A stretch of DNA of 64,000 nucleotides, taken from assembly GCA_008632985.1 (NCBI GenBank), contig QPGO01000061.1:124001-188000 (forward strand), read 5' to 3'. Origin of the DNA: Psammoneis japonica (lineage: Eukaryota). Under the pieces are notes generated by a model. The model was not told where the DNA came from. It made no database searches and saw only the letters and a list, made by a program, of their open reading frames with translations. A program made the translations under genes and the position numbers. Positions 12,984 to 53,043 of this stretch are shown here, piece by piece (the first letter of the stretch is position 1; each line of letters begins with the position of its first letter).

Positions 12984-13538
12984 GGTGATGAGGCGATTCT
13001 CTGATCTTGCCTTTTTGTGTGTGAGAAGAAAAGTTGGAAATTCCGATGCGATGCAAAATAATAACGCGTGGCTGTGATTGGATGAGTTTGTCTGAAATGA
13101 GGGTGTGGGAAATGATAAAGAAATTTTGTCAAAGGTCTGCGTCTGTGCCTCTCACGTTTATTCGCGCTATTCTTCGCGCGTTCCCATCCTCCAACAAACA
13201 CCCAAATCCAACAATTATTTTTCTCAACACTGCAAAACAAAGCATGAACCACTGCACATTGCCACAAACAATGTGTGTCATCATTGTGTTGTTGGAAACT
13301 GCAACTGTGAGAGTTGGCATGAACAATTGACTTCTTGGATGCACCCTTCTGGTGGTGTGTTCTTCTCATCCACACACGCTGCAAAAAAAAAAAGCCGCGC
13401 TGCCCCGCCGTCAAACGCATCTTGTGTTTCCCGACCAAGAGCTGTGGTGCACCACTCACCAGGTTGTTCTTGTGTGCTTGTGTTTGAGAGCCAAGCAAGT
13501 GAGGAGCCTGTGTGTGTGCCATTGCCACTCTGCATCAC

Positions 13539-13625
13539 GACGTGCTCCAGTCGCCCCCGACGTGTTCCAGCCCCAGGTGACACACAAAACGACAATCCAT
13601 TTTCAACACAAATTGTGTGTCTCTC
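13539..13625 (+). mobile_element. Terminus of a GACGTGTTCCAG-TIR element (same end as the 47078/58946 MITE), preceded by a second TIR-like 12-mer
   Basis: 13559 gacgtgttccagccccaggtgacacacaaaacgacaatc matches the MITE end gacgtgttccagtcccaggtgacgcacaaaacgacaatc. A further gacgtgctccag lies at 13539. Confidence 0.7.
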
Positions 13626-13799
13626 GTGTGTGAAGCATTTGAATGTTAGTCTGGAGAATCACTCTGCCAAAGCCAGAAGCCAAGCAACCTCTTGGGTGTT
13701 TTGCCAAGGCCTTGGACCTGCAGCTCTCAAGGGGGCAGCTTTTTCAGCTCCATCTCAAAGTTTTCCTTCTCTGTCTTGGTCAGTCCAAAGTGCAATGCT

Positions 13800-16700
13800 T
13801 GCATGACATTTTCTGCACCACCAGCTTTTCAGCAGGAATGGAGGTGATCACCAGCCATTGCCAAAACAAAACCCCATGTGGGTTGCTGCCAAAGTCAACA
13901 CACTGTCAAAGGCATTTTGCAAAATGGATGCATTGTGTGCAAATGGGAAAGAAGGGCCACCCAATGAACTGTCCTTGTTGACTGCAGCAGTGAAGCCAGT
14001 GCATCCAACTGCCAGCTTGTTAAGATGGGAAACAATCTTCACATCATTGATTGGAGAACAGGAAAGGCCCAGCTCATTGGTTGGATGGGAAGTGTTTGCA
14101 ACATTGTTGGCAGAGCACATGCAGAAGCAATGCACTTGACCGGCACCACCCCCATTGGTTGCTCTCCAACTGCAGATAAAGTCTTGTCACTTCTGGTCCC
14201 CAAATGTTGGCCCTTGCACAAGGAGGACATGCATCAGCCGCCAAACACCACCCAAGTTTTCCATCACAAGGGGGGGGGCTCAGCCTGCAAGGCCTTCAAA
14301 TCTTCCAAGAGGAAAGACAACATGTCATGGCAAGCCTGCATGTTGGAGGAAGACAACCCATCACCCACTTGTCATTGTGAATTGTCTTTGTTCACATTGC
14401 CACTCTCATCCAGTGTGCCACTTGCACCCCCCTTGTCTGTGCTTGGTGTGAACCCAAGGTGATGCCAAGCACAATCATGCTCCCGCACATGCCTCTTGGC
14501 CAGAAGAATGCAAAACACAACCAGGGTTCAAGGGGATGCCTTTGATGGGCATCAGTGCCTGCCTGTCAGATCAGCATGGAAGCTGATGGGCAAGAGCAAG
14601 CCGTTCTTGCAAAGTCCTCAGGGAGGTCATTGCGTGTGTCGGAGTGCCATTTGTTGGACATGATCTTGCCAAGATTGTGCTTGTTGACAGAAATGAACTT
14701 GTGCAAACGTGCCTGCATGGACTGATGCACATTGAGATTGTGCTCGTCATCAAACATTGAGTGGGTGAACAAATCTCTCAACATGTCCCACATGCAGAAG
14801 CAAGTGACTTCCCATCCACCAATGATCCAAGTGTTGGGTTGGGGCAGGAAAACCTTCCTTCTTGTGGAGATTCTTTGCCAACAAGTCCCACTCAAGACAC
14901 TGGGAACAATCAAATTGCTGCTTCTTGCAAAATCATTGTAACAGGGCAAGCAACTGACAACAAAATTGATGGGCAGTGTCGGAATTGTCACACAGCGCAA
15001 TCAGCTCCAACAAAGCTTCCTCCATGAGTGAAAAGGTTGGTGGGTCAGGTGCCTTGTCCAAGGGATGTGGGTTGGCAGTGGTGGGAGGGAAGGATGGTGG
15101 ATCCAGGAGCAACATAGATTCTTCAGAAGACTCATCCAGAGGAAAGGACAGAGAAGCAGCAACAGTGCCAGGGAACATTTTGTAAGAGGAGTCATCATCA
15201 CGTTCATCATCTTCCTTGTTCTCCGCACATTCTGCGGGTGTGGCAAACTGGGCAGGTCATTGCCTCTGTTGAAGTCTGTGCTGGGGTTGGCTGATTCGTC
15301 TTCCTCATCAGGAGTGGCAGTGGATGACTGACAAGCAATTTGCTGTTCTTGGAAAACAAAAACGGCGGCTTGCAACAACTGGCTCAATTGAGTTGCAGCA
15401 GACATGCTGGGGTGGGCTGTGTTTTGCCTGCATTGGCAGCAATGGTGGTGAAAAGGCATGCTGAGCAAAGAGTCAAATTGGAAAAGGCAGGCTGCAGGAG
15501 TGTGATGAAACAATTTGATGCTTGTTTGCATTCATTTGTTGGCAAGCAGATGTCTGATTGATTTTTGAATCAAATTGTTGAGTGGACACTCCGTCATTTT
15601 TTAATGACACTTGGTTGGCATGCTGGCAACAGCCCCGTTGAAGAGTTGGCTGTGAAGAGACAATGCAGTTCATGGCACACACATGTCCAGTCATCAAAGA
15701 TGCACAGATTTGAATTGGATGGATGGTCTGTTTAAATTTGAGTGCAGATGTGCAGCCACAGTTTAAAAAAAATGGTGGCAAACGCCCTTTTCAGGCAAGC
15801 AAGAAAACATTAAAAAAGGGAAAAGACAACTCTTGCATGCACATCATTCACAAGACTCAACCACATCTGTCACCTCACTTCAGTGAACTTCAGCAAACAC
15901 TGGAAAAATTACTTTGGCAACAGTGGAGGATGATTGTCATTGTGGAGCAGCAGATGAGCTCCAGCGAATGGATGGCGGATCATGCCAAGGTCATGCAGGA
16001 CATGGCAAAGGTGAGAGAGCATGTCAAGGAAACATTGTGCCTCAGTGCCACACTCACATTCAACAACAAAGAAGTGGAGGAAATGGGAATGCTCTGCAGA
16101 GATTGTGAGCAGAACTGCACACCCAAGATGATGGATGGGATGCCACAGGAACTGCCCAAGCCGGAGCAAAAAATGCACCTGCACCACCTGTGGCTTACGA
16201 TGAAACAAAAAAAGATGCATCAGGAGTGGCTGGCAATTGAGAGGTCAAATGCGCACCAGGCACAGCATGGCAAGTTCCACAGCAAGTGCAAATGGAGGGT
16301 GCAACAGTGCAATTGCTGACAGCATTGTCACTTGTTTTCCCTGCTGCAAATGAAGCTCTTTGTGCATGCTGCAATGAAGACAATTGCATCATGCCATCTG
16401 CAGAAAAATTCCAAGATTGCTTGGGAAACTGGGCTTTGCAGATGGTGCTCTGTGACCACATGCTGTGTGATCCGATTGAAGCAGACACACACTGGAAAGA
16501 ATTCATTTCCAAGGACAAAAGGACAGGCGCAGCATGCACTGAGAGGCGTTTGCCCACAAGCTCCTCAAGAACAACTGCAATGCAAGGCATGCAGACTGCA
16601 AGAGCCGGAACAAGGATGAGACTTTTGTGTCAGATTACGATGTGAAGTTGCTTGACAATGGAGGCCCAGTGGACCAAGAGGGGGAAGCAAGGGCTTGTGC

Positions 16701-17750
16701 AAGACAATCACACCAGCCAAGGAGATGGACAACCAGGACAAGAGCATGTTTGTGCTGCCACAGAAAGATCCACAAGAGCGGTTGTCAGAGGAAGGAGGTC
16801 TGTCTGCACAAGAACTGAAACAGAGGTTCAAGCAAACAAGGGATGCAATGGTCAAGAAGATCAGAAATGAGCCAAAGACTGCAGCACAAGTCACAGCTTT
16901 GATCAAGGTTACAAAAGTGCTCATTGACAGCCAAAACAATGTGGTTGCATCCAGCAAGAAGAGAGAGGTTGTCAAGAAACTCAAGCATTTCATGGCGGCA
17001 AAGCCAAAGGACACAGACACAAATGCGGGACCAAGGAAGCAAAAGACACTGAGGAAGAGCAAAGGGTGGTCACCAAATGCCAACAAGTTCTTTGTTGACA
17101 TGGTCATGGAGATCAAGCAAGATGTTGCAAGAGGACAACTTGGGCAGTGGGAAGAGCTCTATAGAGCCATCGCACCAAGCAAGATCAATGGGTGGCAGAA
17201 GAAGCACAAGAAGGCTCTGATGATGAAGACAACCACCAGGTCAACTGTGCCAAAACATGTGAACTGAAGTTGGCAGCGGTTCAGGCAAGATTCACTCAGC
17301 GGCGATCACTCACATGCACACTTGTTGACAATCAATTGCAGCAGCGACGTGCAACAAATGGGTGGGAAAATGGAAATGATTGTTTGCACATGCAAGTCAA
17401 CCAAATGAGTTTTACACCAAATGTTGAAAACTGATCCAAGCACTGCATTTGGTTGTCACTCAGTCAGCAACAACAAGACAAGTGAAGCCCCACAAAGCAA
17501 CTTGTTTGGCATTGCAACTGATTGAGTTGCAGCTCACTTGTTGGGATTGACCACAGTTTGTTGATGTCACCAGACACTTGTTGGTTTGCATGGACATTTG
17601 TTTGTTCTTAATCACACCCATTTTTGTGGCAAATGGGTGTGATTTGTGTCAAGTGGCAATGATTCATCACAAATCAATTTATGTTCCGACACTGCAACAT
17701 TGTCCACTGGTCCGACCACAAGACAATTCATGAAAATGGATCTCTGATGC
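13800..17750 (-). mobile_element. Degenerate Plavaka-like DNA transposon, copy 1 (transposase relic on -, accessory ORF on +)
   Basis: Inverted homology to 55370-59915. The transposase relic reads ...SNKWHSDTRNDLPEDF... followed by a degenerate PI-L-ADxTG...AWxHLGFxP segment. ORF 16695-17267 is homologous to 56013-56765. Confidence 0.65.
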
Positions 17751-19939
17751 TGCTGAACAAAACAGTCATCAATTCTTGCCTCCACTGACTTTTCCAAATG
17801 GATTGTTGCAAAGGGGTGTCAACATTGCAGCATGGTGGCATCTTCAATTGACAGCAAGGAGGGCAGTTGCATTGGACATCAGGTGTTTTGATGGTGCCAG
17901 TGACAATGATGGCACATGTCCGGTCATGCAGGTGGCTCTGAGTTTATGAAACAAAGGAGAAGAAAAGGAGGAGGAGAGAGAGAGAGAGATGCGTTCACAG
18001 TGGAAGCAATGCTTTCAATGCACGTGCTCGATGCCCAGACAATTGTCACTTCCAATGTGCCCACCAGCCACAGCTCTCCACTCTAGAGGGCAAACACTCT
18101 AAAGAACAGTGACATGCCATGGGCCACATCTGAGTGCAATGTCCACTGCTTCATTGCTCATGGAAAATGCAGAAAAAGCACACACCCACAGCTGACTTGC
18201 TCTACAGTCAACATGCAGCAGCACACTTGCCAAATGTTTCATCACAAGAAATCTTCAACAGGTCCCACATCATTCTGTCCATTTCCTCTCTGGACTGAAA
18301 GTTTCACAAACCAACATTCCCAATTCAATGAACAACGTCAAAAGACTCATGCCATGCAAAAGATTGGTCCAGAAAGGCCACTGCAAGCTCAGGCAAAATG
18401 ACAGTCAAAATGAAAATGTGAGTGGGACAAAGTGCCAAGTGCAAGTCACTGGGACACATGTCACAGCACACTCGCCAGCGCACCTTCCAGAGAAAGTTCT
18501 GAGTCAACCGGCCAAATTTTGTGGCACCCTGACCATTGCCAGCAGTTCATTGCATCCACAAGGAGACCAGCAAAACCATCCTCCCTTTCTCTGTTTTGCC
18601 AAGTGCAAAGCCCAGGCTGGAAGGCACACTGCCAAGTTCTCCCAAAACAATGCAGAAAGCATTGCATGATGGACAGTGAAGATGACACCATTGCAGAGCA
18701 GGAAAAAAGGGCCATTGCAGACCAGACACTTGCAGGCATGTTGACAAGATGCACAAAGAAAGACTTTTGAAAAACAACTCTAAAACTCAATCAATCACAA
18801 TGCACGCACAGGATTGTCTTCTTTGGAGCATGCCAAGTCTGTCTGACAGGTGCCAACATTGCAAGTGTCCCCCCCAATGACACCCAGACAGCAGCACACA
18901 GTGTCCGTGCCCTCCAGCCAGATGATGCAACAAAGAGGTGCATTTGACAAAGGAGACGTGCCTTTCTCCTCCAGCCCAAGCACACCCCGGGGTGCTCCAT
19001 CTTCTCCTGCAGCAAAGAAATCCACTCAAGGCCCAGCTCCTGGAATGGAGTCCCCTCTGTGGGATCCACCTGATGTTCCGTCTAACCTGGGATCCCGGCC
19101 ATCACATTCACCCTGGAAACTGTGGGTGTCATTGGCCTGAGGAGAGATGACTTCCCCCAGTTCAGTCCATTGGAAGCAAGGTCAGAGTCACCTTGCGGAT
19201 GACCAAGTCCAGCCAGACTTGAGCCCCCTCAAGAACTTGAGCCCCCCCCCTCATGACCCTCCTGATGACCTGAGCCAAAGGAGGGAGGGGGGCCCAAGAC
19301 AAGGGCGACAACAGAGAACTTGACAAGAATGAAGAAACAACATCAGTCTCAAGCTGATGTGCGAGCTTGACAAAGGCATCATTGTTGATGCCAGAAGCAA
19401 AACAACCAGACATGGCAGGAGAGACAAAGCAAAAAAGAAAAGCACTTCTCCAGAGCATGTGTGTGATCCGGTCACATTGACCAGGGTTCTTGCCTCAACA
19501 ATGCCGGAAAAGTGAGAGGTTTTTTGTGTGCAAGTTGGCAACTGCCTGGTGTGCATGCATGAGAAGTTCACATGCTGCATTGCCCAGTGGTGTGGTGTGA
19601 GTGACAGATGGGGTTTTGCTGAAAAACTGGGTCATGCAGGCAGGAAACGGCAGGGGTGTTGGAGATGGAGTGGCAAGCTGGGCCTTCAGTTTGGTTGTGT
19701 GTCTTGCAAGTTGGTCAGCCAGAGATTTTGCAAGTGCAAGACTTGGGGCTTTGGAAACCACATTGGGATGGTGTGGAGGCGTGACAAGTGTGACCAAAGA
19801 GGGAGCAAGAGACTGTTTGCCATGCAGCTGAAGCAGCAGGGAAAATTCAGAGGAAGACATTTTTGCACACATGTGTGCACTGCAAGCAGCTGCATGCAGA
19901 AAGGATGATGCAACCGTCCAAGGGGGGGGGGGGGGGGGG

Positions 19940-20175: not shown

Positions 20176-20681
20176 GACATGTTCCAGCCCTGGGTGGGAG
20201 CTCGCATTGCTGATGTGTGACACAAACAATTTTTAACATCCGCTGTGTGTTTTGCATGCCCATTTCTGCATGTGACACTCCAAAAAAATTCTCCAGACTC
20301 ACTGTTTTGCAAAGCCCCAGACATTTTGCACAGTGCACCCACAGAATCAACAGCGTGCCAGTGGCATTCTTCAATGTCTGAGGAGTGTAACTGGCCAAGT
20401 GAAAAATGATGTGCTTTTGCGAAGCCCCGGACATTTTGCACAACGCACCCACAGAATCAACAGCATGCCAGTGGCGTTCTTCAATGTCTGAGGAGTGCAA
20501 CTGGCCACGTGAAAAATGATGTGCTTTGATCATGGACAAGTTTGTGCATTTGCAAAATTGCCTCATTTTCTGTCAGCGATCATTGACATTTTCATTGCCT
20601 GACAATTTTGCTGCAGAGCTCGCACGCAGAATTCTGCAGGCCCAATGTCACACGGATTCTCACCTGCATCTGGAATGCATC
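20176..20681 (+). mobile_element. Degenerate MITE, family B, with an internal ~117 bp tandem duplication
   Basis: Ends gacatgttccagccctgggtggga... and ...ggcccaatgtcacacggattctcacctgcatctggaatgcatc are homologous to the ends of 37227-37619. TSD not preserved. Confidence 0.7.
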
Positions 20682-21018
20682 AGAAGAGGAGGTGGTTTGA
20701 GAGCTGTGATTTCAACAGCAAGGACACTGTGCGATGCAGGAGAGGCAGTGTTTTGTGCTGGTGTGAGAGCCATGCCAACGTCAGCGGTTGAGGGGCGAGT
20801 GAGGGAAAAGATCTGCAGCTTTGTGGTGCACTGAAGAGGAATCAGTGCACAGTCCGGACAGTGGGCCAATGATGTTGGTTGAGCAACAGCAAATGGCCCA
20901 TTGCAAATTGCATTGGAAATTGTGGTTTTGTGGCCCAAAGACTGACAACAGAAGGCATGAACTGAAAGTTTGACGGGTCACGAATGCAAAAGACCATGAC
21001 CAGTCATCTTGGCCTGGA

Positions 21019-21180
21019 TGCAAGGTCTGACGAGATGAAGACTTCAGTGATGACAAAACTGTGAGCGAAAGATCGAGGTGACGAGGGTCGCTTTCAGCGA
21101 AGCCCGTTGCAACTGCTTCCATTGTGTCCAACAGGTCCATCAATGCCGCACATCAGAAAAATGAGGTGCGAGACACTGCA
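21019..21180 (-). repeat. 3' LTR of Gypsy element
   Basis: TGCA...TGCA termini; aligns without gaps to 26242-26403. Confidence 0.9.
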
Positions 21181-21409
21181 CTCTTCCCTTCCATGATTCG
21201 AGTGTCGAGAATCATGCGGGACTCAAAAAATTTAAATTCCAATGGATGAGGATAGAAGGGAAACCCAAATGTTGGGGAGAAAACCCTTGACCTCAGGTGT
21301 GATGTGGTACAACGCGACGCATGTTCAATCGTTCTGTCACATGAGGTGTGCGTTGGACCGCAAGCGCACCGTTGGCGTGCACTTGAACGACAGGATGTGG
21401 ACCGTGAGC

Positions 21410-24400
21410 TCATGGCTTGAGCTTGGTTGGGTCGACAGCCTTGAGCAGAACTTGTCCGCCAACTTGAAAATCGCAGGATCGGCGTTCAGCGTTGGCTCGA
21501 CGGAGATTCGCATTGATGATCGCTTGTCGGTGTTCTTGAATGGCAGCAAGATTGGCTGGGACCGGTGAGTCGAGAATCATGTCACGTTGAAAAACCATGG
21601 CACCGGGTGAAATCTTAAGAGCACGAGAAACCGCACATCGCATTGCATGCATGGCGGTTGCCAATGCATTGTCCACTGGTTGATTGGCCTGCTCAACATT
21701 CTGTGGAGGACAAACATGAAGCAAAGTGCGCAAGACATTTCCAACAGTTTGATGCATGCGCTCGCATGCCGCATTGGCTTGTGGATTTCGCGACGCAGTC
21801 GGAGCGTCTTCCACTCCTGCTCGTTGCAATGACAATTGAAAGTCCTCTCCAATGAATTCTCCACCATTGTCATGGATGCACCGGTTGGGACGAGGACAAC
21901 GAGACAACCAACAATTTTCAAATTGTTGAGCAATGTGAGATGAGGTTTTGTTGTCGATGCGAATGAGTTCAGTCACATTCGAAACGGTGTCAACACAAGT
22001 CAAAGCGTTGAACTCGATTTCATGGTTTTGAATTTCAATCTTCCAGGGACCGATGAGATCAACCGCAACTTCCGTCCATGGCAACAAAGGCGCTTCTCGT
22101 TCAGGCAGGTCCCCACATCCAGGGCCTAAAGTTTTCAAACGTTGACAATCAGCACAATGAAATCTTTCACAGGATTGACGAAGGGCAGGATGACAGAAAT
22201 GTGCGCCAACAGTGGAATGCATTCGGTGCACTCCTGCATGTCCCAAAATCCCATGATGCCATCGTATGATGTCATGCAGCAACGCCGTTGGAACACAAAT
22301 TTTCCACACAGTCGGAGGATCATTCGGTCGAGCACGATGACAAATTACAGGACGCTGATTCACACATTCCACAACGAAGCGTTCTGGATGTTGTTGTCGC
22401 ACATTGTTCAGCTCCACGTCGATGAATTGGTGTTCTTGAATTCGTTGCATGGTTGCAGGGTTTTGCATTTCCTCGAGAGAAGGACAGTTCAAAAATGATT
22501 CACACAATTCGGGGTCGTCCACGACAGAAGAGTAAAATGGAGATGGTTCTTCACGACGACAGGAAAAATGAGACACACGGTTTTGGTCGTCCAGTTCTTC
22601 TTCACGCGGCAGCATGGCAGGGTTGATCGCCTTAAAATCAATCAGCTTGCCCTTGTTAGGAGCACACTTCCCTTCCGCAGGAGGGTCCATGCGCGGCAAT
22701 CTTGAAAAACAATCCGCTGAGAGATTGTCTTTGCCATCAACGTGTTCGAAAGTTGGGGCAAAATCTTCCAAGAAGAGTCGCCACCTGAGAACTCGTTGAG
22801 AATTGAGCGCACGAAAGGTGAGATTTTTATGATCCGTAAAAACAGTGCAGTCAGCTCCAAACAACATGCTTCGAAATTCTTTGAAACACATCACCACCGC
22901 CAATGATTCTTTTTCAATCGTAGAGCAGTTCTGTTGTGCTGTGCTGAGTTTCCGGGACCAGCAAGCCACTGGTTTCCCGTCTTGCACAATTGCGGCCCCC
23001 ATCTGACAGTCCGAAGAGTCAGCACAAATGTGGAATGGCTTGTTGTGATTCGGGTAGACCCAAAGGGTGTCGTCCAGCATCAAGGTTTTCACATCTTCAA
23101 AGGCTCGTTGACATTCAGGGGTCCATTCCAACTTGCTCTTGCCTGTCAACTTCGTGAGTGGAGCGAGCACGTGTGAGCGACGAGGCCACATGTTGCGACA
23201 ACAAGTTGCCGCACCGATAAACGATCGTAGTTCCGTCACAGTTTTAGGTGGTTGCATTCGTAGCACCGCTTCCACTTTCTTCTTCCACGGTCGGACTCCT
23301 GCAGGCGTGAGCCAATGGCCCAAAAAATCCGTCTCTTGGACACACCATTCGCACTTGAGTGGGTTAATTTTCAGGTTGTTCTCTTCTAGTCTGGACAACA
23401 GCTCATCGAGTCGATGCACATGAGCATCAAACAAATCATCAAATTGAGCAATGTCATCGATGTAAGTTTCAACATCGATTCCTTTTGCCACTTTTTCAAT
23501 GATGGCTTGAGCAACATCGGGAGAGGTTTTCAAACCCATGGCCAATCGACAATGTCGAAATTTCCCAAACGGAGCAACAATGGCACACAAATCCTTGGAT
23601 TCTTCGTCAAGCTCGACATGACAATAAAACACAGTGAGGTCCAACTTGGTCAAGCACTTGCATCCCGAGCGTCGGTGAACAACGTCTTGAATGATCGGCA
23701 GAGGATGGACCTTTCGTTTGAGCACCTTGTTCAACTCTCGAAAATCAGATGCCCATCGAACTCGTCCATCCTTTTTGGGAGTTACAAAAGTTCCGGCTGC
23801 CCATTCAGTTGGTCCCACTGGTTCCAGTGCGCCAATGTTGCATGGATGTTGTGGTTCTTTCTTAAAAACGGCTTCATCCCTCTTGGACACTTCGCAAGCC
23901 TTAGAATGGAAGGGAACAGCGTTGGGATCAACTTCCAAGTGAACAGTCTCATGCGGATGTTCACCAAGCGTTCCATCAAAGAGGGTTTCATGCTTTTCAA
24001 GCACAGCCTGCAGCTCATCACGTTGTTCTTGAGTCAAGTGAGTTTGAGCTTGCGCCACTTTCGCGGGTGACACTTTCTCGTATTTGGCGTCCATCATAAA
24101 AGATTGTCCGAAGGCTTCCTCATCGTCTTCGTCCTCTCCGTCGTCTTCCAGTGCATCCAACCAATTCTGAACTGAGTTCCAATGATTGGATTGCTTCATT
24201 GGGATCGACGTTTCCAACCACTTTGTCATTCCAAATCGAAAATCAAGCACGATTCCGGCTTTCGACAAAAAGTCTTGTCCCAAAATTAAATCACACTTGC
24301 ATGGGGCATCAAAAACTTGAGCCGCAATGCCATCGACTTGTTTTGACTTGTCAAATTCTGGCAAGATCAAGTCCTTCATAACAACGTGTCGGGAGGATTC

Positions 24401-24472: not shown

Positions 24473-24787
24473 AACTCAAGAATGAACAAGAGTGTTGGTG
24501 CCTCCTGAATCCAATGGCACTCGCAACACTCGCTTGCTCTCTTGATTTTGAATGGTGCGCACCGCCATCAACGTCGTTGGCACCACATTCAATGGTTTGG
24601 GAGTCGCAGTTTTAGGGGTTGGCACAGCGCACTCCAAAACGCCGCCCAATTTCTCTTCATTCACAGCATGAGATTCCATCAGGTCTCCCACATTGTCATC
24701 AACATTAAAACACACATTTTCTTCACGATCACGCGAAACATAAAAAGATTGAGCGACACGCTCTGACTCAGGCACTTCCGTCCCTTG

Positions 24788-26000: not shown

Positions 26001-26241
26001 TCATCATGAAAAAGGGAATGCAATTGTTCAACAGTCCTCTCCAGGGACTCTGCCTTTGACTCCAAATGATGCACTCGGCTCGCCAAATTCTGTTCGTGTC
26101 GTTTGCGTTGTTGCACTTGTTTCTGGTGCTCAATGGCCCAAACTGCTGCTCTTGCGCGCAGTTCTCTTTTCTCACGTTTGGTCAATTTGTTTGCATTGTT
26201 CCCAGTCTCCATCCAGTTCTTTGAATCGACTGCAATTACAG

Positions 26242-26403
26242 CGCAAGGTCTAACGAGATAAAGACTTCAGTGATGACAAAATTGTGAGCGAAAGACGGAG
26301 GTGACGAGGGTCGCTTTCAGCGAAGCCCGTTGCAACGGCTTCCGTCATGTCCAATGGGTTCATTGACACCATGCATCAGAAAAATGAGGTGCAAGACACT
26401 GCA
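26242..26403 (-). repeat. 5' LTR of Gypsy element
   Basis: Aligns to 21019-21180 and is followed by TSD CTGGA. Confidence 0.9.
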
Positions 26404-31527: not shown

Positions 31528-31529
<2 letters not shown>

Positions 31530-31581: not shown

Positions 31582-31584
<3 letters not shown>

Positions 31585-40600: not shown

Positions 40601-42479
40601 GAGGCACAGCAACTGTGGTTGCCGTGTGACAAGCATCCGGTCAGTTGCTGTTCTGACTTGAAACAAACAGCCTCTTTCTGACGATGTGTTGACGGCATTG
40701 CCTTCGGACAATGTGTCAATGGCGTTGTCTTTCTGACAATGTTTGACAGTGCTTCAATTGTCCCTGCCGCCCTTTGTGGGCACTGTGGAATGTGGGTTGG
40801 TGTGGGTGGTGGCGAGGCAGCAGCAAAACAGATTTCCAGTTTTGTTGTTTGAGGTCCTCAGTTAAGGCAGTTTGAGGGATGATCAGATCATGAACAATCT
40901 TGTGACGGATGGTTGCGATTGCATCAGGCTTGAGGCCTGGAGGAGCAAATCCATCCAGAACATCTTCAGGAGCAGGTGTCATGTCGGAGTGAAGTTCATT
41001 CAGGTGAGAATGGGCATCAGGTGAGCAATTTTGCGGTCTGAATTTGACCTGTGTTGACTTGATCTTGGTCAAATTGACGGAAGTTTGCTCAGTCGGCACC
41101 ATGGCTGTGCAGGAAAAAAATCAAAATCCTGTGCAGAGCACTGGCATGTGGTCTGCGGTGGTCATGATGATCACAAATCAAGTGAGAAAAACAGCTGTGA
41201 CAAAGATGATGATTTCAATGGAGAAATGTCACCAAATCACACAGAGAACGTTGCACGCAGTTGCACTGAGCAAGACAAACAGCACGCTGCTGTGCTCATA
41301 ACCTCATGGACCAGTGGCATCGGGACGATCTAACTGACATCTGGGACAGATGACAATTGTGTGCTGGATGAGAAAGAAAGAAAGCAGCAAAGAGAAATCA
41401 TTGGATCTCTCAATGCTGTCTGTGCCAGTCTGTCCGAGACAAGGGAGTGCACTCCCCATCTCGGATGTCTGTCAGAAATGACCAAGCAGCTTGTGTGTTG
41501 TGGACACAACTGCAATTGACTTGGAAAGTGCTCACTTGAATGCACCATGTGCAGAGAAGATGGGTTTGAAGGTGGAGCCAAGTGATTGTGGCAAGTTCAA
41601 ATGGTGTGCATTGGTTGTGGCAAAAGCATTTTGTGGATTGAAGAGTGCAAGGTTTTTGTGGCAACCATCATTTTCTTCTGCTTTGTGAGATGCAGGTTTT
41701 GAGCTGATGCATGCAGCCAGACCCAAATGTGCACATGTGCAAGCAGCAGCCCATGAGGACAGACACTGGCACTGCAAGATGCCATTGGTCTGTTTGGATG
41801 ATGTGTTGATTTGTGTTGCATCAAGGCAAGTTGGTTGTAAAGTTTGTTGCCAAGCATTGCAAGACGGAGCCTGGGAATGAAGGTCAGCCCAAGACTTGTC
41901 TGGGAACGACTGCAGAAAAGATCCAGGCACAGGATGGCTGCAATGGTTTGGGCCAGTTTGCCAAGAGACTGCATCAAGAATGCAGTCAAGACAGTGGAGG
42001 ATTTGCTGAGCAAGAATGGAGATGGCGCAGTTCTGAAGAATGAAGTGAAAGATCCATTCCCAGTGAAGTGCAAACCAGAGTCAGACATGACAGATGAGCT
42101 GGGTCCCAAATTGACATCCTGACACTTGCAGCTCATTGGCATTGCAAGATGGGCAATTGAGTTGGGCTGTGTTGGTGTTTTGTTTGAAGCATCTTTGATT
42201 TCTCAACATCAGGCAAATCCAAGGAAGGGTCATTTGGAAGGCTTGTGCTGCACATTTGCACACATGAAGAAGCATCTGAGCAGGGGAACAAAACTTTGAA
42301 CTCGCCACATCTTTTGCACAGGCACCAGATCTTGCACCACCATTCACGCAATCTTTCTCTTGGGAGAGATGAATCTGCAGTGCTGACAGGTGCCATTGGA
42401 ACAGGTTGAACCTTGGTGATCTCCAGCAGATGTGACCTGTGCTGCAAAGAATGTTCAAAACGTCATCTTGTCTTCCAAA

Positions 42480-43292
42480 ACGGGTGCATGCCTGTGCCAC
42501 ATGGGTCCAACAGTGGCTCACACCCAGAGGCATGACAATGTCTTTGGCCACAGAAAAGTGTGGATGGTGTTTCAGTGCTTGGTCCAATCCCCGGCATGCC
42601 GAGCACCAAATCCCTGTGCAAACACAAAGATGCGGTCTCGTCCATCACTGTTGTTTGCAGCTCCGAAAAGTCACCATTATGTTCTGCACGAGAAAAATGG
42701 CGTTTCGGCACTTGGTCCAATCCCCGGCTTGCCGAGCATCAAATCCCTGTGCAAAACTTAAAGGTGTGATCTCGTCCTTCACTGTTGTTCAATGAGGACA
42801 CTTGGTTTTCATGTGTTCCATCGCTTCTGAAATGTTTCTTCCTGACTTGTTGAGATCGTTGTGTAAATTCAGCATGAGGAAGCACGTCTCAAGAAGTGGC
42901 AAATAGAAGAAGTCGGCTTCGCTCGCGTTTCTAACTGGACCATTCTTGAAGCGTTGTGTTCTCAGCTGAACAGAGGCTTTGATTGCAGCAAGGATCTCGA
43001 ATGTGCGGAGGTGTTTCAAATGAGCGCTCTACAAGCTCCTCGTTGAACCGAGGCGGGGATCTTGGTTCGATCTGTGGAACACGTTGGATTTGCGAACTTC
43101 CGTCTTTTCCTAGGAGCTTTAGTCACATTATAGGAAGTATAGATTCTACCTTCTTGACTGGCGGTGTCGGTGCAGGCAGAAATCGTTGGCAGCCTAGCAA
43201 TTGTGATAGTTGAGGGGAATACAGGAAGCCAACTAAAAGCAATCCTTGGACGAGTCTGTCGCTCGTCTATTCGTACGAGAGAGGGACGGCAT
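42480..43292 (-). pseudogene. Exostosin-like (GT47) glycosyltransferase pseudogene with frameshifts and an internal ~135 bp duplication
   Basis: Fragments: TM (QGLLLVGFL), PPRFNEELV, PVRNASEADFFYLP, TKCPH/(W)NNSEGRDH, duplicate NNSDGRDRIFVFAQG and FSVAKDIVMP, following the GT47 pattern EADFFYVP...YPYWN..GRDHIF...KDIVIP. Confidence 0.7.
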
Positions 43293-45000: not shown

Positions 45001-46349
45001 TGCTTAACGGCAGTGGTCAGATTTCAAATTCTGAGCAATACAGAAATGTCAATGATGAATAAGGATTTTAGATCCCTTCTGCCCTTAATGTCATTATTCC
45101 AATGCCACTAATGAATACACAAATGAATTTGTATTCCATCCTTTTCGTAAACTTTGATCTATCGGCATTTTCAATACGAGCACGCGATGACAACAATAAA
45201 GCATGCTTGTATGTGTCATGGTCATAAGCTGTAAGGCATACCGTCACATTTGGATTGAACTCGGGGATGTTGGTGTCGAAAGCAGCCATTTGTTTGACAT
45301 TCGTGATTTTTCATCGCCCACAAATTGGGATTTCAACTGAGTCGAGTTGATGTTGGACGTGTGCAAAGCACTGCGTTTGATGAAACAATTGAGGGCTCTG
45401 GGCTTATGGCATTTTATGCCATGGAGACTTAAAATGGTGAATGGGTTGAAAATCAGGCCAGTGATCGGGTTTGCCAACATTTCCAAAAATGTGACAACAA
45501 AAATTGCATCACTCAACAACCAACAACCCCTCAAGAGAAAGAAACAAGAAAAGTGATTCCTCTTTGCACTTGAATTAAAAGAGACAACAATGCACAACAA
45601 ATGTTCAAGAAGGACAAGAAGCTCTTGAATGCATGAAACAAGAAGAGAGTCAACGAATCACTCTTGTTTCGAACCTCTTGCCCTGTTCTCTCCTCCATGG
45701 TGGTTGGTTGAAAGGTTGGTGGTGGTTTTTTGTGAGACTTGCAGCTTGATGCATGTTGATGCATGAACAAATGGCCCATGTGTGGTGTCACCTTTGGAAT
45801 GTGCCACTTGTGGAGCTTGAGTGGACAGCTCTCTGTGCTCAAGCTTTGTCTGCCAAATGCTCCGTCAAAGTCCAGATGCTGCCCCATCCCACCCAACCAT
45901 TGAAAAAAAAACAGTTCTTGCAAAATGCTGTTGCCTGTTTCCCTCTTCCTCTGCAGAGCAGCTCTCTTGGTGACAGTGCCACCCACACACCAGACTGCGC
46001 TCAAGAATGCTTTCCAACCTGCCAGCCAAGACACCCAGCTCGGGGCTGTGTGGGCTCGAATCTCTCTCAAGACAAGCGGCTGAGCATGTTTCTGGCACTG
46101 GCGGCAATGCTGAGCCCTCCTTCCTGTTTGACTTTCCAGGGGTGTGCCCAGACTGCCTGCATGCTGGCCCAACCACAAGAGTTGCTGTTTTGCCAGTTTT
46201 GTCAGCAGGATGTGCCAAGGCTGCTCTGGCCATGTGTGCCTGGCTGGCACCACAAAGCAAAGACAGGTGCGACAGCACTTTCTGCTGTCAGCAAAGAGTG
46301 TGAGCTGGCTGGACTGCCCAACCCCACACTTCCCAGTGCCAAAAGGTCA

Positions 46350-48800
46350 TTTTGTTGAACTGTAGAATGTCCTGTTGTCCCTCGCGTTGTGTCCTCGAGG
46401 CAGGCCGGTGCGCACTTAGCGTCTGAAATGCGCGAAATCCGGTCGGTTTCCGAAGACAAGGCTTCTGGATCTTGAAGATAGAAGGAGGTTTCTACCGCAG
46501 CATCTACGTGCCTCATTGGCACTTCTCCATTGACTGATGGCCACTCTGTCATCTGTTTAGAGAAGACAGTGTCAATGCCTTGTGTCTCCAGAATGTCACG
46601 TCCAACAATCATGTCGCACTTGCCCAACTTTCCGTTGTGTGCGTGGACGGCATGTTTAAGTTCTGCAGTTTCGGATAATTCTGGCAACCGAAATTTAACG
46701 GTGCAGTCGTTGGACGCACTGAACGAGCCTGCTGCCGCAGCCCAGTTTGTCTCAGCCGTTGAATGGCTTCGCAGACGTTTGCAGCATCGACTGTCGAGTA
46801 GAGCACTGCTGGCGCCACTGTCCAGCAGTGCCTTGATGGTTTGAGTCTTGCCCTTGCCATGTTTGAGCATTCACAGCTGTGAACAAGATTGGAACAAGAT
46901 GAGTCTTTTTAACTCGTTTGCGAGATTGGCCTACAACACGTGTACGATGGCAACTCAGTTGTTCATTTGTGCATTCATCCAATGTGTCAAAACCACCTGC
47001 ATCGTGTCGGCCCCCTTCTCAGGTGTCCGAATCTTCGGAACCACTCAAGTTGAGGTCGCGGAAGTGATTGAGCTCCTGACGTGTTCCAGTCCCAGGTGAC
47101 GCACAAAACGACAATCGGATTTTGAACATGGTTTATGTGTGTTTTAGTGCACACAGCATCAAAAATGCTCAGATGGATTGACTTTCACAGGCTTCTAGAG
47201 CATGCACATTTAAACAGTTTTTTGAGGGGTGCTCAAATCTTCATGGGATGTGTGTCACAAACTTCCTCAGCAGACTCAATGCTGATTGCACGTCAGCAGA
47301 TTTACACTGAGATTTTTTTGTAGGCAGAAAACCTGCCAAGTGGCATCGTAGAAAGACACATTTAGTCAACATCCAAACAACGGCAATGTTTTGCCGAAAA
47401 TCATCCGTTGTGTTACGAATCTTTTGATGCAATGAAAAACATGGACAGCACAATGACAATGACATTGCAACACTCACACGAGTCTTGTCAGTGTTGCAAA
47501 ACATTTGCATTTGTGCAAATCCATGCTTTTGGTGGTGAAAGTTTGATCGTAAGTTAGGGACCGCGCAAAAATCGCGCAAATGTTGTTTTTGTGCACGATT
47601 TGGTTCACGTGCGGCTGGAACACGTCTCCTCCTCGCGTGCCTTGCGCTTTTTCTGAGCGTTGGCAAAGAACTCCTCGACCTTTGATCCGATGAGAGCATT
47701 GATGTCTTCCTCATTCCGAGGTTTTGCATTGGGTTTGCTGCCTCCATCATTGGAATGTCCAGTCTTGACACGTTTCACGCGGTGCTTGAGCTGACGGCAA
47801 TCCTCCGCATGATGTCCACAGTTGGTCCCGTGCAGCATGCACGACTTCTGAGTGTTCCGTTGGGTCGTGATCAACGACTCAGGATTGTCCGTTCTACGTC
47901 CCCGCTTGCGTGGAACCTCAGCATGTTGGTCCAGGTTACCTTTGGCAAGCTCGACCTGCTCGATGCGCTCGCAGAACTGCACAAATTCGGCGATGGCATG
48001 CGCCAACGGGTCAAAATTCTGTAGCGTCATGAACTTCTGCCATGCGTTCGGCACACCGTGCTCGAACACATCGCACAGTTCGTCATTGGGCAATGGTGCC
48101 GGTGCTTCTCCATCCTCCGTCACGGGTGGAAACTGAGAGATGTGGCCGTTAATTTCAACAGCCCTTGCGACGCAGTCACGAGCAGAAACCTCTGCGGGCT
48201 TGCACATGAAGCGCCTCAGACAGCGCTTCTGCAACAGTGACGCCCTGTGTGGGAAGATACTTTCCTTTAGCTTCGCGACGCATGCTGCGCACGTGGCGTT
48301 GGTTTGGGATGCCTGCTTGTCAGCGGCATTGTTGGATGATGTCAGAGCATTGCCCTGCAGCAGGTCACGCATGAGGGCAAATTTTGCTGGCCCGGTTGTC
48401 ATGTTTTGTCCTTCGTGCACGCAATCCACGTTGCGTGGAAAGATCAGGAGTGTCTCGCATGTAGCCGCAGAAAGGTGCGGATTCATGGTCGTTTTAAGAT
48501 TTGTCGGTCCCACCAACATTTCGTAGTTTCGTTTCTGCAGATTTTGTCACCTCGCACAACATGCGGGAGTGACATCACTGTGCCCCATGCATGCACTGGG
48601 CGCTGAAAAGAAGATGTGTTACGACCTTGTCGTTGTGAAAATTGTGAGCCAGTTTAGAGTGGAGAAAGTGGGATCGTGCGAATGGGGAATCTTGCCAATT
48701 CCCTGTTCGTTCGCATTTGGATCGCATCAAATCGATCGTGCGTTCGCATTGTGGATCGTGCGAATCAAGCCATCACGCGCTGTGCATGAGTGATGTCATC
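46350..48800 (-). mobile_element. Truncated Ty3/Gypsy element (5' LTR end, gag, protease)
   Basis: Gag ORF 47605-48519 with CMLHGTNCGHHAEDC; protease ALLDSGASS...KCDMIVGRD in 46202-46870; putative LTR end TGTTA at 48617. Confidence 0.8.
47078..47626 (+). mobile_element. MITE family A, TpA-depleted copy
   Basis: 12 bp TIRs gacgtgttccag / ctggaacacgtc; 4 bp TSD TCCT; inserted at the end of Gypsy gag; inverted copy at 58946-59500. Confidence 0.95.
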
Positions 48801-50760
48801 GTGTGGAATCACGCTGCCATCGTGGGCCAGACGACGGGCCAGTGTGCTTCACACGGATGCTCTCTCAGCATCCTTCTGGAATTGCCTGAGACCTGGAGCC
48901 ACGCCCTCCTGTGGTCGTGCTTCCCAGGTGCGTGTTAACAACACTGCGTTGCCACGTGCAAGAGGCTTGTGCACGGTCTCGCCGTGTTGTCCAGCAGCGA
49001 GGCACACTGCACGTGGTGACTGGGGCAATTGCGAATGCGACAAGAACTGCCTTCATGCAGAATGCCCATGTCTGGAGTGCCTTCCGGACTGGTCATTCCT
49101 CGGACTCGAGATCCTCGATGATTGAGGCCAGAGCATTGGCGCAGGGTGCTTTCTTGTTGGAGTCTTTTGTTCTGCTTTCGGATTCTTGAGTGCTTTGCGA
49201 AGTCGACAACCTTTGTCTCCCGGATCATCAGGTGAGTGAGCCACCCAAGCAGAGTGGTGCTTGCACCAACAATGGTCTCGTCCCTTCTGACTCTTGTGAT
49301 GACACTTGTGCCCGTTGACAGTCTTCGCAGGGTCGCTGTCCTTTGGCGGAGTCTTCTTCCAGGCTTCATCCTGTTTCTTGGCGTGCTTCGGGTTCTTGCT
49401 TTTGTTCTTGGAGTTCTGCTTGCCACCACCTCCCTTGGACTTGCTGGGACCACTCTTGAGAGCCTTGGAGAGCTTGAGGTTGTAATCCTTGATGGTCTCC
49501 ACTTCCGTGGTGAGTGCAACAATCCTTTCCTGCTCAGGAGAGAGTGCTCCCCACTTGTCTGCTCGATCGAGGTTCGTGCACTTGTTGAGTGCTAGCTGCA
49601 TGACTTGTTCCGGGTTGCAGTCCTCACCATCATCATGCTTCTGTTCCATGTCAGCCGTGCACTTGACAAATGCTTGATTGCTGGCTGCTGTGTGTCCTTT
49701 GAACAGGTTGACCACAAGGTCATCGCAGTCTTCTCCCCTGGCTCTGAGTCCGTCATGGTTGAGTTTGACGCACTTGTTGAACTCCTCGATGTTCGAGTTG
49801 CAGGTCGACATGTGTGAGTCAAGGCTGGACAAGTTCTCGCGGAAGCAGTTTGCGGTTGAGCGAGTGTCCACGATGGCCTTCTGAGCAGGCAGTTTAAAGA
49901 ACAGTGCACTGACTTGTGCTCCGTTGATCTTGTGTTGCTTGCTTTCGGCGATGATCTTGTCTCCAGCTTCCACAGTTAGGGTCTGAGAGATTGCCTCAGC
50001 CATTTGGACTTGGTTCTGGGCTTGCCTTGACTGAGCAGCCATGCAGGCAGTGGCGTGGTCGCGCACGTTTTGTGCAGCAAGTCTGCCACACTTGGTGATC
50101 AAGTCTTGATCGATTCCATTGCTGTCGGGGATCGATGTGATGTTTCCCGTTCCTGACTTCCATCCTGACTCAGAATTTGTTGAGACCTTCAGAGTCTCCA
50201 TTGAACTCGTGAGGCAGTGGAGCTGTAGCAGCACTCCAGAGCTTGAGACCTTGCAAGACGCCGCAGTCCATCCAGTCATCTGGACGGTGCTGACCAGGGG
50301 TCAATGCGAATGTGGGTCCTGCAGCAGGTGCTGCAGGAGGAACCGGAGGCACTGGAGGTGCTGGAGGTGCACCTCCTCCACCACCGCCTCCACCACCACC
50401 ACCTCCTGGAGGGACTGGTGGAACCGGTGGAACTGGTGGTGTTGGCATGGGTGCGCCTGCTGGAGTGGCAGCAGGGGCAGCAGCGGGAGCTGCAGCAGGA
50501 GCTGAAGCAGGAGCTCCAGTTGCAGCAGACGAGGTGCGGGTGGCCACCATTGTTGGGTGGTTTTGGGTCTCGATCAACAGCTGGCTTGAAACCGAAGTTG
50601 CAAAGAAGCAGGTCACAGAGGAAGCGTGTGGGATTCTACCTGGGATGCAGGTCCCATCTGTAGAATGTGCTGCTGACAATCAGTGCAAGGCACTAAAAGC
50701 CAGCAAAACAGCAATGAGTTGTCTCACCAACTCGTGCTTGGTTGAAACCATGAGCTGAAA
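48800..50760 (-). mobile_element. CoDi-type Ty1/copia gag relic
   Basis: ORFs 50170-50679 and 49053-50279 (frameshifted): TFALTPGQ...GLKLWSAATAPL...VVNLFKGH...WCKHHSAWVAHSPDD..C. Confidence 0.65.
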
Positions 50761-51299
50761 CTAATCTAAAAGTGAGTCTCTCATTTTGTGACAATGCCAC
50801 ATCAGAAAACAGACATTCTTCGAATGTCACTCATGCAGAATGTGCACTGAGAGTCATGGCGCAAGTTCGTCACTTGAACTGTCCTTTCCGATGTCCAACT
50901 CAGCCGCGTGGAAATTCCAAGAAGATTGGACATCCTGAGATGTCCACAGTCATGCTAAATTGTCACAACCTGAAAACCAGGACATGGAGTTGCTTGTTTG
51001 TGAACACTCTCTTCATCTTGTTTCTCTTCTCCACAAATCTGGACCCACTTTTTCCCTCCTCTCACCTTCTTCTTGGCGGGCAACTTCTGTTGACAATTTA
51101 TCGTGGCAAGGCAGAGACGACAGAGTTTTGACAATGCACTCAGTTTCAAAAACAATGTGCACCACTGGGATCATTCCTTTTTGTGCCACGACTCAGCTTT
51201 TGCGTTTTTGGTTGGTTGATGCAAACGCGACTTGTCTGTTGTCGATCCCGTCTGACCGTGGCCACCTGAAAATTTTTCACCGCGAAATTTTTTTCTTTT

Positions 51300-52290
51300 T
51301 TTTCTCATGGAACAAATCCACCATGGCGACATCTCAAGCAGTTCCAATGGGCCGTTGCGGCCTCTCCATGAACCAATGTGGAACATTCTACAAGAACGGT
51401 GCTTCGTGCAGAATTGCCAAGAAGATGGAGGTCACTGCTGTCTTCTCTGTCAACTCAAAACACCTGGTGACTGTCCTTCAGAGCGGAAACTTGCCAAACA
51501 TGCCAAAGTTTCCCGCGGCTTTGCAAAGAAAGTCATCAATGAAATGGAACAAGGGGCATCAACAGATCCCTTGAAAACAAAGAGGCGGTCTGGGGGTGTT
51601 GGATCTCGGCTCTTTGTGGAGACAGATGAAGTTGTTTCATTGAAGTTGTGATGTGAACGACCAACTCGCAGCCTCCAAAGCTGTCGCAGGCAGCTTTTTT
51701 GATGCACAGGAATGTTGGAGTCGGAAATGATGATCTGTCATTGGTTTCTACATTGGTTTGAAATCAAGGGTGGAATGCGGAAGTCAAATCTTGTCCCTTT
51801 TGACAAATTTGCTCCCGAGAACATTGTTCGTACGATGGAACACAAGAGTGTCATTGCCGAAATGGATCCTTGGCGGATCAAGTTTGGTGATGAGAAGCAC
51901 TTGATGGGTGAAGAGCTTGTTGATCGCAAAGTGCGTCATTGTCCAATGACTGGCATTGTTGAGGACATTGTCATTGATCCAGATTTCCAAAATGAGCACA
52001 CAATCATTGGAATCTGTGGAATCGACAAGGAGGTGCCCGTGTTTGATTGCTGCCTGCATGATGGAACCAACAATGCTGACACCTTCTCTTCCTACATTGA
52101 GTTGTGTGCAGCAAGGGGATGTCTCCGATCGGAGATGTGTTGGTGCTCGATGGTGCTTTGATTCACCTCTGTCGCGAGTCGGAATCTCTCGATGAGTGGC
52201 TTTTCAATGAGTTTGGAATCTTGCTTCTATTCCCACCTGCTTGCTCCCCCAAGTTGAATCCCACAGAGAAAATGTGGCTTGCGCCAGCAC
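51300..52290 (+). mobile_element. IS630/Tc1-mariner-like DDE transposase relic
   Basis: KFGDEKH (first D), GDVLVLDGALIH (second D) and LFPPACSPKLNPTE (degenerate LPxYSPELNPIE), across frameshifts. Confidence 0.75.
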
Positions 52291-53043
52291 TCAGCAGCAA
52301 AGTGCAACACAAGGACAACCTTGTTGCAGTGGTCCGAGTCTCAAAATCAAAGTGACAGTCAAGAAAAGGAGGGGTCAAGCACAAAATGCAAAAAATGGCA
52401 CCTCAAAAATGTGGGTCTGCAACAATGGTGAGTGCTTGTCACTGCATGCACAGCAGACTTGTTCCAGACTCAGGTGGCGTGCTCATGCCCCTTTTCGCAC
52501 AAAAATCAAACATTTTGTGCTTCATTCAACATCAAACAAATTTAACTTAAATGCTGACACTGATGGCTTTTAATTAAACTTGACAGATGAATTCCAAGCC
52601 AACCAACAGCCAAAACAGCCGTGGCTTTCAGCACCCATGACGGCCGCTTTTTCAACCTCGTGGAACATTTGATGACATGACAAGGACCCCACAGCATTTT
52701 GCACAGTCCATGTGTCATCAATGAATGTGATGAAAATGCTTGTTGCAGGCTGCAGCACAGCACAAGCAGACAAATCTGTAAGCAACAACAAAAAATTGAG
52801 CCTCATTTCCTCACTCACAATTTGCCTTTGGGGGCAAGTGCTTTTCCACTGCTTGTGTGCATTTCCTCGACGAATGAAGGTTTCTTGAGGGAGCGAGCAT
52901 GCCGCCTAAACGAAATAGACTTTGCTGATGTGGCGATCATCCACACGATGATGAGCGCTAAAGACGATCTGCCGCTGCATCTTGTTTTACGTTGCGCTGT
53001 TCCTGCAAGTTGCCAGGTTCACAATTGCACTGTCGTAATCACC

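Follow-up and report, generated by a model that had tools for sequence, protein, structure and literature searches.

Graded neighbour preference in the erasure of TpA from transposon DNA of Psammoneis japonica

In Bigelowiella natans, integrated viral and transposon-like DNA undergoes A:T>G:C hypermutation restricted to the dinucleotide TpA, for which the main text of the preprint proposes adenine deamination, with ADAT2 as the candidate enzyme, and which it documents with 231 de novo mutations and a TpA observed/expected ratio of 0.45 in a viral region (Mettrop et al., bioRxiv 10.64898/2026.01.13.699255). A related erasure of TpA (hereafter TA) marks the transposon DNA of a 64-kb stretch of the Psammoneis japonica genome (64,000 nucleotides; GenBank assembly GCA_008632985.1, contig QPGO01000061.1, positions 124,001 to 188,000), referred to here as the window, in whose numbering all coordinates are given. 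As far as the main text of the preprint describes them, the two cases have in common a near-exclusive A>G/T>C change, its location on TpA, its restriction to foreign DNA and a low TpA accompanied by high CpA+TpG; they differ in the organism and in depth, the erasure being far deeper here (TA ~0.05 vs 0.45). The three features of the B. natans process that can be tested on sequence, namely A>G/T>C change, TpA as the site and confinement to mobile DNA beside untouched genes, were all found in the window. The words ‘context’, ‘trinucleotide’, ‘logo’ and ‘flanking’ are absent from the main text of the preprint, which reports neither a preference at the positions 3′ of the target nor a CpG effect, and a full-text literature search, in which extended context was checked in the B. 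natans main text only, returned no description of TA erasure in diatoms. The kind of process is known from this single 2026 preprint, and the extended flanking motif is new information. With a probability of roughly 0.6, we consider that the transposon DNA of the window underwent, after insertion, a change of TA to TG or CA with a graded preference, the favoured site being 5′-T-A-Y-Y-3′ on the strand that changes from A to G (Y, pyrimidine; R, purine; +1 and +2, the positions 3′ of the target A).

Several other systems leave or could leave comparable marks on nucleic acids. Repeat-induced point mutation (RIP), known from Neurospora and other fungi, changes C to T at CpA, creating TpA. Adenosine deaminases acting on RNA (ADAR) favour U as the 5′ neighbour and G as the 3′ neighbour of the edited base, and the tRNA adenosine deaminases TadA and ADAT2 act natively on a U-A-C-G loop, with early TadA base editors preferring YAC. 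Dinoflagellates, chlorarachniophytes and diatoms all belong to the SAR group. According to the portion of the published account used here (PMC11572971), TET/JBP homologues of dinoflagellates produce the modified base 5-hydroxymethyluracil (5hmU), which takes the place of T preferentially in TA and TC, is enriched on transposable elements and has a silencing effect on them. The upstream U of ADAR is also noted in the Discussion of the B. natans preprint (bioRxiv 10.64898/2026.01.13.699255).

The window is a succession of gene stretches, in which TA has an observed/expected ratio of ~0.5 and CpG is normal, alternating with sharply edged TA-depleted blocks (Table 1), where the ratio falls to ~0.05 (range 0.0-0.15) and that of TG/CA rises to 1.7-2.0. 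According to their Pfam domains, the depleted blocks contain a Gypsy element with reverse transcriptase, RNase H and integrase, a copia-like remnant, a weak protease match and unclassified repeats. The reading frames of these blocks hold 0-0.7% Tyr vs 2.2-4.5% in genes, with elevated Cys and His. CpG is mostly gone in some depleted blocks (observed/expected ~0.2) and intact in the Gypsy block (0.8-0.9).

A direct view of the change is offered by two copies of one miniature inverted-repeat transposable element (MITE), a mutated and an unmutated one. The unmutated copy at 58946-59500 serves as a proxy for the ancestor because its TA observed/expected ratio is ~1 and every TA of the mutated copy near 47 kb is present in it. 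The pair is separated by 61 substitutions, of which 26 are T>C, 20 are A>G, 9 are C>T and the remaining 6 of other kinds, such that A>G/T>C accounts for 46 of them and CpG>TpG for 5 of the remaining 15. All but five of the 46 A>G/T>C changes lie on TA (41/46). Seen from the ancestral side, 24 of the 53 TA sites became CA, 17 became TG, 11 were kept and one was deleted, a TA loss of 79% (41 of 52 scorable sites) vs a CpG loss of 20% (5/25), so that TA erasure has outpaced CpG decay. The two long terminal repeats (LTR) of the Gypsy element carry TG in one opposite CA in the other at matching sites, and two copies of a second repeat family show CA in one and TG in the other at 105 sites, with TA retained in one copy only at a further 18. 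Since LTRs and repeat copies differ in this way, and a DNA transposon is also affected, the conversion took place at the DNA level and after insertion.

Each TA can be divided into two half-sites, one per strand, consisting of the target A and its 3′ neighbours. In the MITE pair, conversion reached 32 of 63 half-sites of the TAY type, vs 9 of 43 of the TAR type (odds ratio 3.9, p = 0.002); the initial annotation had put about 31 of 40 changes on TAY, in good agreement with the 32 of 41 conversions counted here. The same preference appears by site class, with conversion of 19/19 RTAY sites, 19/25 mixed sites (YTAY or RTAR) and 3/8 YTAR sites. A competing-risk fit, in which either half-site may be the one converted, gives a rate of 1.30 for a pyrimidine at +1 and 0.35 for a purine, a 3.7-fold difference (likelihood-ratio p = 0.0003), the rates for the individual bases being 1.50 for T, 1.04 for C, 0.43 for A and 0.26 for G. 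The +2 position adds to this effect, as the rates are 3.4 for TAYY, 0.83 for TAYR, 0.65 for TARY and 0.27 for TARR (p = 0.004).

The Gypsy pol frame provides a second comparison with known ancestral states, through 25 alignment columns in which Tyr is found in at least 60% of 40 homologues and in which the element now has 13 Cys, 7 His, 4 Tyr and 1 Phe. At its codon-boundary T|A sites, conversion reached 5/5 with T at +1, 5/7 with C and 1/4 with A, whereas the same G-variant change at codons without a preceding T was seen at 0/55 (+1 A), 0/20 (+1 C), 0/4 (+1 G) and 3/34 (+1 T). The frame has stayed open across 1021 codons despite the change of 20 of 24 conserved Tyr (the 25th column being the Phe). 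Dead elements keep such long open frames because conversion of TA to TG or CA removes TAA and TAG and makes only TGA.

Survival of TA across the depleted blocks was measured against two controls, the genic DNA of the window and, since genes may differ from transposons, the 22,276 TA sites of 78 Gypsy relatives that come from metagenome contigs and are unmutated (TA observed/expected 0.46-1.08). None of these 78 relatives is TA-depleted, a count to be read with the fact that one of the search patterns includes Tyr, so that mutated copies would escape it; host-gene paralogues that could serve as ancestors were not found within the window. Automatically defined depleted blocks hold 6 RTAY, 88 mixed and 83 YTAR sites, vs 182, 304 and 94 in genic DNA, which corresponds to survival proxies of 0.011, 0.098 and 0.298, respectively (chi-square p = 6e-22), and the order RTAY < mixed < YTAR recurs in 8/8 blocks. 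With the transposon control, relative survival of the three classes is 0.12 : 1 : 2.46. This order of loss, RTAY first, then YTAY and RTAR, and YTAR last, is the one to be expected because each TA offers a half-site on both strands. The extreme case is ATAT, with no survivors vs 19.6 expected at average survival. The initial annotation had described YTAR as spared, and this is so for TTAA (whole-site relative survival 3.65) and for CTAA/TTAG (2.21), but not for CTAG, which survives at the average rate (1.03). It had also described the residual TA as mostly YTAR or adjacent to CpG, and this holds narrowly, for 94 of the 164 sites (57%; 69 YTAR and 25 CpG-adjacent) in the depleted blocks of the range 13170..52900.

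At the level of half-sites, relative survival descends from TAAA (3.46) and TAGA (2.53) through TAAC (1.61), TAAG (1.49), TACA (1.31) and TACG (1.29) to TACC (0.34), TATC (0.28), TATT (0.22), TACT (0.17) and TATA (0.09), a context effect that spans ~40-fold and in which +2 matters as much as +1. A logistic fit with the transposon control expresses the same effect relative to A, with survival at +1 of 0.31 for C, 0.63 for G and 0.32 for T, survival at +2 of 0.38 for C, 0.41 for G and 0.22 for T, and an additional TATA term of 0.08; the fit with the genic control gives the same picture. In a scan of positions, the signal is found at +1 (chi-square 152) and +2 (133), is weaker at +5 and +6, and is slight at +3, +4, +7 and +8. 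Conversion is unequal across NTAN contexts in the survival tables of both controls, as anticipated by the initial annotation, and the enzyme-like trinucleotide preference that it proposed stands insofar as the neighbour preference is large, strand-specific and found with both controls and with direct ancestors; it needs revision in that the preference is graded (~3.7-fold at +1) and extends beyond the trinucleotide to +2.

Survival alone cannot separate an effect of the +1 pyrimidine from an effect of the upstream purine (-2) or from recognition of RTAY as a palindrome, so the direction of change at asymmetric sites is needed. In the MITE pair, the TAY strand was the one converted in 13 cases and the other strand in 6 (RTAR gave 11 CA and 4 TG; YTAY gave 2 TG and 2 CA). 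The Tyr codons of Gypsy pol that follow a pyrimidine yield 9 Cys to 2 His, likewise in favour of the TAY strand, with three codons kept, and the repeat pair yields 8:3 at sites where TA remains in one copy only. Pooled over these sets, conversion lies on the TAY strand at 30 of 41 asymmetric sites (95% interval 0.57-0.86, p = 0.004), which fits the share of ~79% predicted by a 3.7-fold ratio of rates. Where both halves are expected to be fast, the split is even, as in the Gypsy Tyr codons that follow a purine (4 Cys, 5 His, 1 kept). Both strands are hit, interleaved at single-site resolution, and no same-strand runs were detected, neighbouring conversions sharing their direction in 21/40 cases vs 20.2 under the null. 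Strand bias, weak on the whole, is locally present in blocks B3 and B6.

A mechanism that would produce this pattern can be outlined. At every TA, each strand offers one half-site; a pyrimidine at +1 speeds conversion ~3.7-fold, and a pyrimidine at +2, above all T, adds a further 3- to 4-fold, leaving TA followed by AA or GA as the slowest sites. An enzyme with an intrinsic T-A-Y-Y preference would have acted repeatedly on duplex or transiently opened nuclear transposon DNA, and deamination of adenine to inosine, which is then read as G and which is also what the B. natans preprint proposes, would be the most likely and the simplest chemistry.

A number of observations weigh against this reading or limit its reach. 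The totals of gain and loss do balance, with ~31-37 TG gained per kb vs 35-48 TA lost per kb, but the counts of individual products agree with the preference in the pooled blocks only (preferred 2622 vs disfavoured 1980, and 535 vs 522 in genes; p = 0.0002). In the Gypsy element by itself, gains of preferred and disfavoured products are 8.2 vs 9.5 per kb, showing no preference; TGT gain is almost nil though TAT is the largest loss; and control elements differ among themselves by as much as the product signal (sd ~5 per kb). Ancestral states are proxies except for the MITE, the Gypsy element and the repeat pair, the counts fit equally a change of T to C at 5′-R-R-T-A on the other strand, and the scale is that of one 64-kb window. 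The listed variation among genomic MITE copies does not repeat the preference in direction either. In contigs of sequencing run X1 that cover the element, A>G or T>C accounts for 100 of the 157 variable places; among those listed (40 of the 157), 20 of the 21 A>G/T>C changes inside the MITE are in TA, but the asymmetric sites divide into 7 on the TAY half and 6 on the TAR half, and TAAC half-sites stand out (6/7 vs 14/99 other half-sites). The listed places lie in TA-poor surroundings (5.3 vs 8.3 other TA within 31 nt, p = 0.0001), and their pattern is probably a technical bias of 31-mer contigs. The run X1 data were kept out of the context ranking and used only for TACG conversion in many copies.

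The first rival to weigh concerns TACG, which the initial annotation had singled out as especially spared. It proposes a TAY-preferring enzyme that is blocked by 5-methylcytosine at +1 of TACG, such that CpG methylation would shield the adjacent TA; the premise of the initial annotation was that transposable elements of diatoms are CpG-methylated. The nine TACG/CGTA positions that had been listed, the three in the mutated MITE and the TAC-G Tyr codons of the DAKYEK and RGYGN motifs are all present. Survivors among RTAY sites adjoin CpG in 5/7 cases vs 34/182 in the control (p = 0.0045), and in the direct-ancestor sets 6 of 11 sites with a TACG half were kept vs 6 of the 88 with a different TAY half (p = 0.0003). 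In the logistic fits, the CpG interaction (+1 C with +2 G) raises survival 2.64-fold with the transposon control and 3.6-fold with the genic control (z = 3.5 in each), and CpG enrichment next to surviving TA is 2.72 over background at offset +1 vs 0.9-1.98 at +2 to +11. Two survivors, cgTAtg and cgTAtt, retain a fast TAT half opposite their TACG half, as a shield acting on the whole duplex would predict. Regional co-survival of CpG and TA was considered as the cause of this sparing and rejected, since it explains ~1.35-fold of the 2.7-fold at +1; one other offset, +10, reaches 1.98 by chance.

Against a methylation block stands the rank of TACG among the half-sites, as its relative survival equals that of TACA, is well below that of TAAA and TAGA, and is high only in relation to TACC and TACT; the emphasis on TACG as the most spared context cannot be maintained, and the excess that persists after normalisation makes it no more spared than TACA. 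In the MITE pair, TACR was converted in 2/10 and TACY in 8/11 (p = 0.03), with TACG at 0/4, and a model in which a purine at +2 slows conversion fits as well as one in which TACG is special (negative log-likelihood 43.1 vs 43.8). Of the six kept TACG sites, five are paired with a TAR half that is itself slow. In the direct-ancestor sets, the TACG half itself was converted in 3/11 (with 2 more lost via the partner half) vs 52/88 of other TAY halves (p = 0.058). TACG is also converted in genomic MITE copies, where two of the four TACG half-sites (59022 and 59157) have changed in 31 and 42 run X1 contigs, and once more in the repeat pair. The CpG excess is of similar size in the Gypsy block, where CpG has not decayed (2.4-fold), and elsewhere in the depleted DNA (2.65-fold). 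Beyond the effects of +1 C and +2 G, TACG is slowed by a further ~2.6-fold, but it is not immune and ranks with TACA. We consider a methylation block rather unlikely, and most of the sparing of TACG would be part of the intrinsic +2 preference.

A second possibility is that the target is thymine rather than adenine, the T of TpA being modified, for example to 5hmU by a dioxygenase of the TET/JBP type, and then mispairing with G, with 5′-R-R-T-A-3′ as the preferred site. In its favour stand the marking of transposons with 5hmU in dinoflagellates, which belong to the SAR group as do chlorarachniophytes and diatoms, and the symmetry of the sequence data, with which every count fits equally. TC is not depleted, few A>G/T>C changes of the MITE pair fall elsewhere than on TA (5 of 46), and 5hmU opposite A is weakly mutagenic, all of which speak against this target, as does the preference of the B. 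natans authors for adenine deamination in the main text of their preprint. The dinoflagellate precedent resembles the window in that a modification is aimed at the T of TA and enriched on transposable elements, and differs in being an epigenetic mark for which the portion of the account used here reports no mutational footprint (PMC11572971). On balance, a thymine target appears improbable. The weakest candidate, that RTAY is recognised as a duplex palindrome and either strand then changed at random, with no strand-specific trinucleotide preference, could draw on the ambiguity of survival data, on the even splitting of RTAY (10 TG vs 9 CA for the MITE, 4 vs 5 for the Gypsy element) and on the near-even division of the listed run X1 places, but is very improbable in view of the direction at asymmetric sites, whose share matches that expected from a +1 effect.

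Returning to T-A-Y-Y conversion, its relation to the other known systems can be made more precise. It is like RIP in its dense, dinucleotide-directed transitions of repeated or mobile DNA, its sharp domain edges and its graded neighbour preference; it is unlike RIP in that TpA is destroyed and CpA/TpG created, and in that repetition alone is no trigger, as the abundant unmutated MITE indicates. RIP itself was rejected as the cause because the direction is reversed, TA going down and TG/CA up. It resembles ADAR hyper-editing in the change of A to G, the preferred 5′ U/T and neighbour effects of a few fold, but G at +1 is worse here than C or T (survival 0.63 vs 0.31 and 0.32). ADAR-type editing through an RNA intermediate was likewise set aside, since the two LTRs, expected to be identical at insertion, differ as TG vs CA, and since a DNA transposon is hit. 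With TadA and ADAT2 it has in common the putative deamination of adenine, T/U at -1 and the tolerance of C at +1; G occupies +2 in their native loop, while in the window the survival of TACG is 4 to 8 times that of TACC or TACT, and an enzyme retaining the native U-A-C-G preference was rejected on these survival values and on the failure of TACG to convert in the MITE pair.

The motif is of use beyond the window. It provides a biochemical fingerprint against which candidate deaminases or dioxygenases can be held (at +1, T ~ C > G > A; at +2, T > C ~ G > A; TATA and TAYY fastest, TARA slowest), and it argues against a tRNA-deaminase-like U-A-C-G preference and an ADAR-like preference for a 3′ G. 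It can be compared with the de novo mutations of B. natans, and the ratio of RTAY to YTAR among surviving TA is a sharper index for other genomes than plain TA depletion. If the CpG effect were methylation-dependent, cytosine methylation would be linked to a second, faster route of mutational silencing. A wider and doubtful proposal is that a TA editor acts on transposon DNA in duplex form and is physically obstructed by a methylated CpG next to its target, such that 5-methylcytosine decay and TA erasure, both linked to silencing, interact, and that the contrast of T-A-Y-Y with T-A-R-A is the fingerprint of an uncharacterised DNA-acting adenine deaminase or thymine dioxygenase, possibly common to algae of the SAR group.

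The MITE family invites some further remarks. Extremely abundant, it numbers about a thousand copies, and 1129 contig pieces of run X1 match the unmutated copy. That copy lies within a repeat which is itself heavily mutated, so neither repetition nor location suffices as a trigger of mutation; the arrangement fits episodic action without showing it. One run X1 contig joins 58943 to 59504 and represents the empty-site version of the host repeat. In the mutated copy, the five CpG losses all read CpG>TpG on a single strand and none yields CpA, and C>T exceeds G>A overall (9 vs 1); some non-TA changes adjoin a converted TA, for example TAA>TGG and TAT>TGC. TAAC (GTTA) is prominent in the listed MITE variants, yet it is among the better-surviving contexts in the window. 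A second MITE-like element has related termini at 36286-36383 and 37227-37324, one arm being mutated and the other lying within a short normal-TA island.

Table 1. Coordinates of the TA-depleted blocks and of the elements compared; TA left gives the number of surviving TA sites.
Feature	Positions	Strand	TA left	Description
Block B1	1310..4600		14	TA-depleted, CpG largely intact; survival vs genic control RTAY 0, mixed 0.083, YTAR 0.357
Block B2	13150..19900		28 (RTAY 0, mixed 17, YTAR 11)	TA-depleted, CpG-decayed (~0.2); includes repeat copy 13800-17749
Block B3	20200..26250		42 (RTAY 4, mixed 23, YTAR 15)	TA-depleted Gypsy, CpG 0.8-0.9
Block B4	31500..37000		21 (RTAY 0, mixed 12, YTAR 9)	TA-depleted, copia-like remnant; gag_pre-integrase match 36116-36994
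Block B5	37750..42800		12 (RTAY 0, mixed 6, YTAR 6)	TA-depleted
Block B6	45400..52700		61 (RTAY 3, mixed 30, YTAR 28)	TA-depleted, less completely
Block B7	54800..58850		12 (RTAY 0, mixed 4, YTAR 8)	TA-depleted, CpG-decayed, second repeat-family copy
Block B8	59640..64000		15 (RTAY 0, mixed 5, YTAR 10)	TA-depleted
Repeat copy	13800..17749	+		Aligned to reverse complement of 55372-59915 (MITE removed), 79% identity
Gypsy LTR left	21020..21182			88% identical to 26243-26405
Gypsy pol frame	21410..24475	-		Reverse transcriptase, RNase H, integrase; 1021 aa, still open
DAKYEK	24074..24091	-		Surviving TAC then G; residue 132; RTAY site kept
Gypsy gag-like frame	24791..25909	-		Gly/Arg repeats; Tyr 0.5%, Cys 4.3%; RGYGN (25022-25036) retains TAC-G Tyr, neighbouring repeats GNC
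Gypsy LTR right	26243..26405			At depleted-block edge
MITE, mutated copy	47078..47626	+		12-nt terminal inverted repeats, 4-bp target duplication TCCT
MITE, unmutated copy	58946..59500	-		Target duplication GTTT; proxy ancestor

Outside the blocks, the normal-TA stretches carry a DEAD-box helicase, a glycosyltransferase, a sulfotransferase, an enoyl-CoA hydratase and a frame with a TspO domain. A weak DEAD/DEAH helicase match (E = 6e-4) at 15714-16316 (+ strand) falls within the twice-present, heavily mutated repeat family, and similarity between it and the intact helicase gene at 10929-13151 was not detectable. On the minus strand, an open reading frame (ORF) at 917-2995 is open over 693 aa in a TA-depleted block with intact CpG and contains 0.4% Tyr and 3.9% Cys; no homologue was found among 8000 scored candidates, the only match being a sub-threshold one to DUF4116, and it may be a copy of a gene that has mutated or an element of unknown kind. 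The assembly has a gap of 152 N at 19940-20091, after which a 110-nt tandem duplication (20305-20527, 93% identical) marks the edge of the Gypsy block. Normal-TA islands at 26250-26750 and 37000-37550 interrupt the depleted blocks and may be young insertions.

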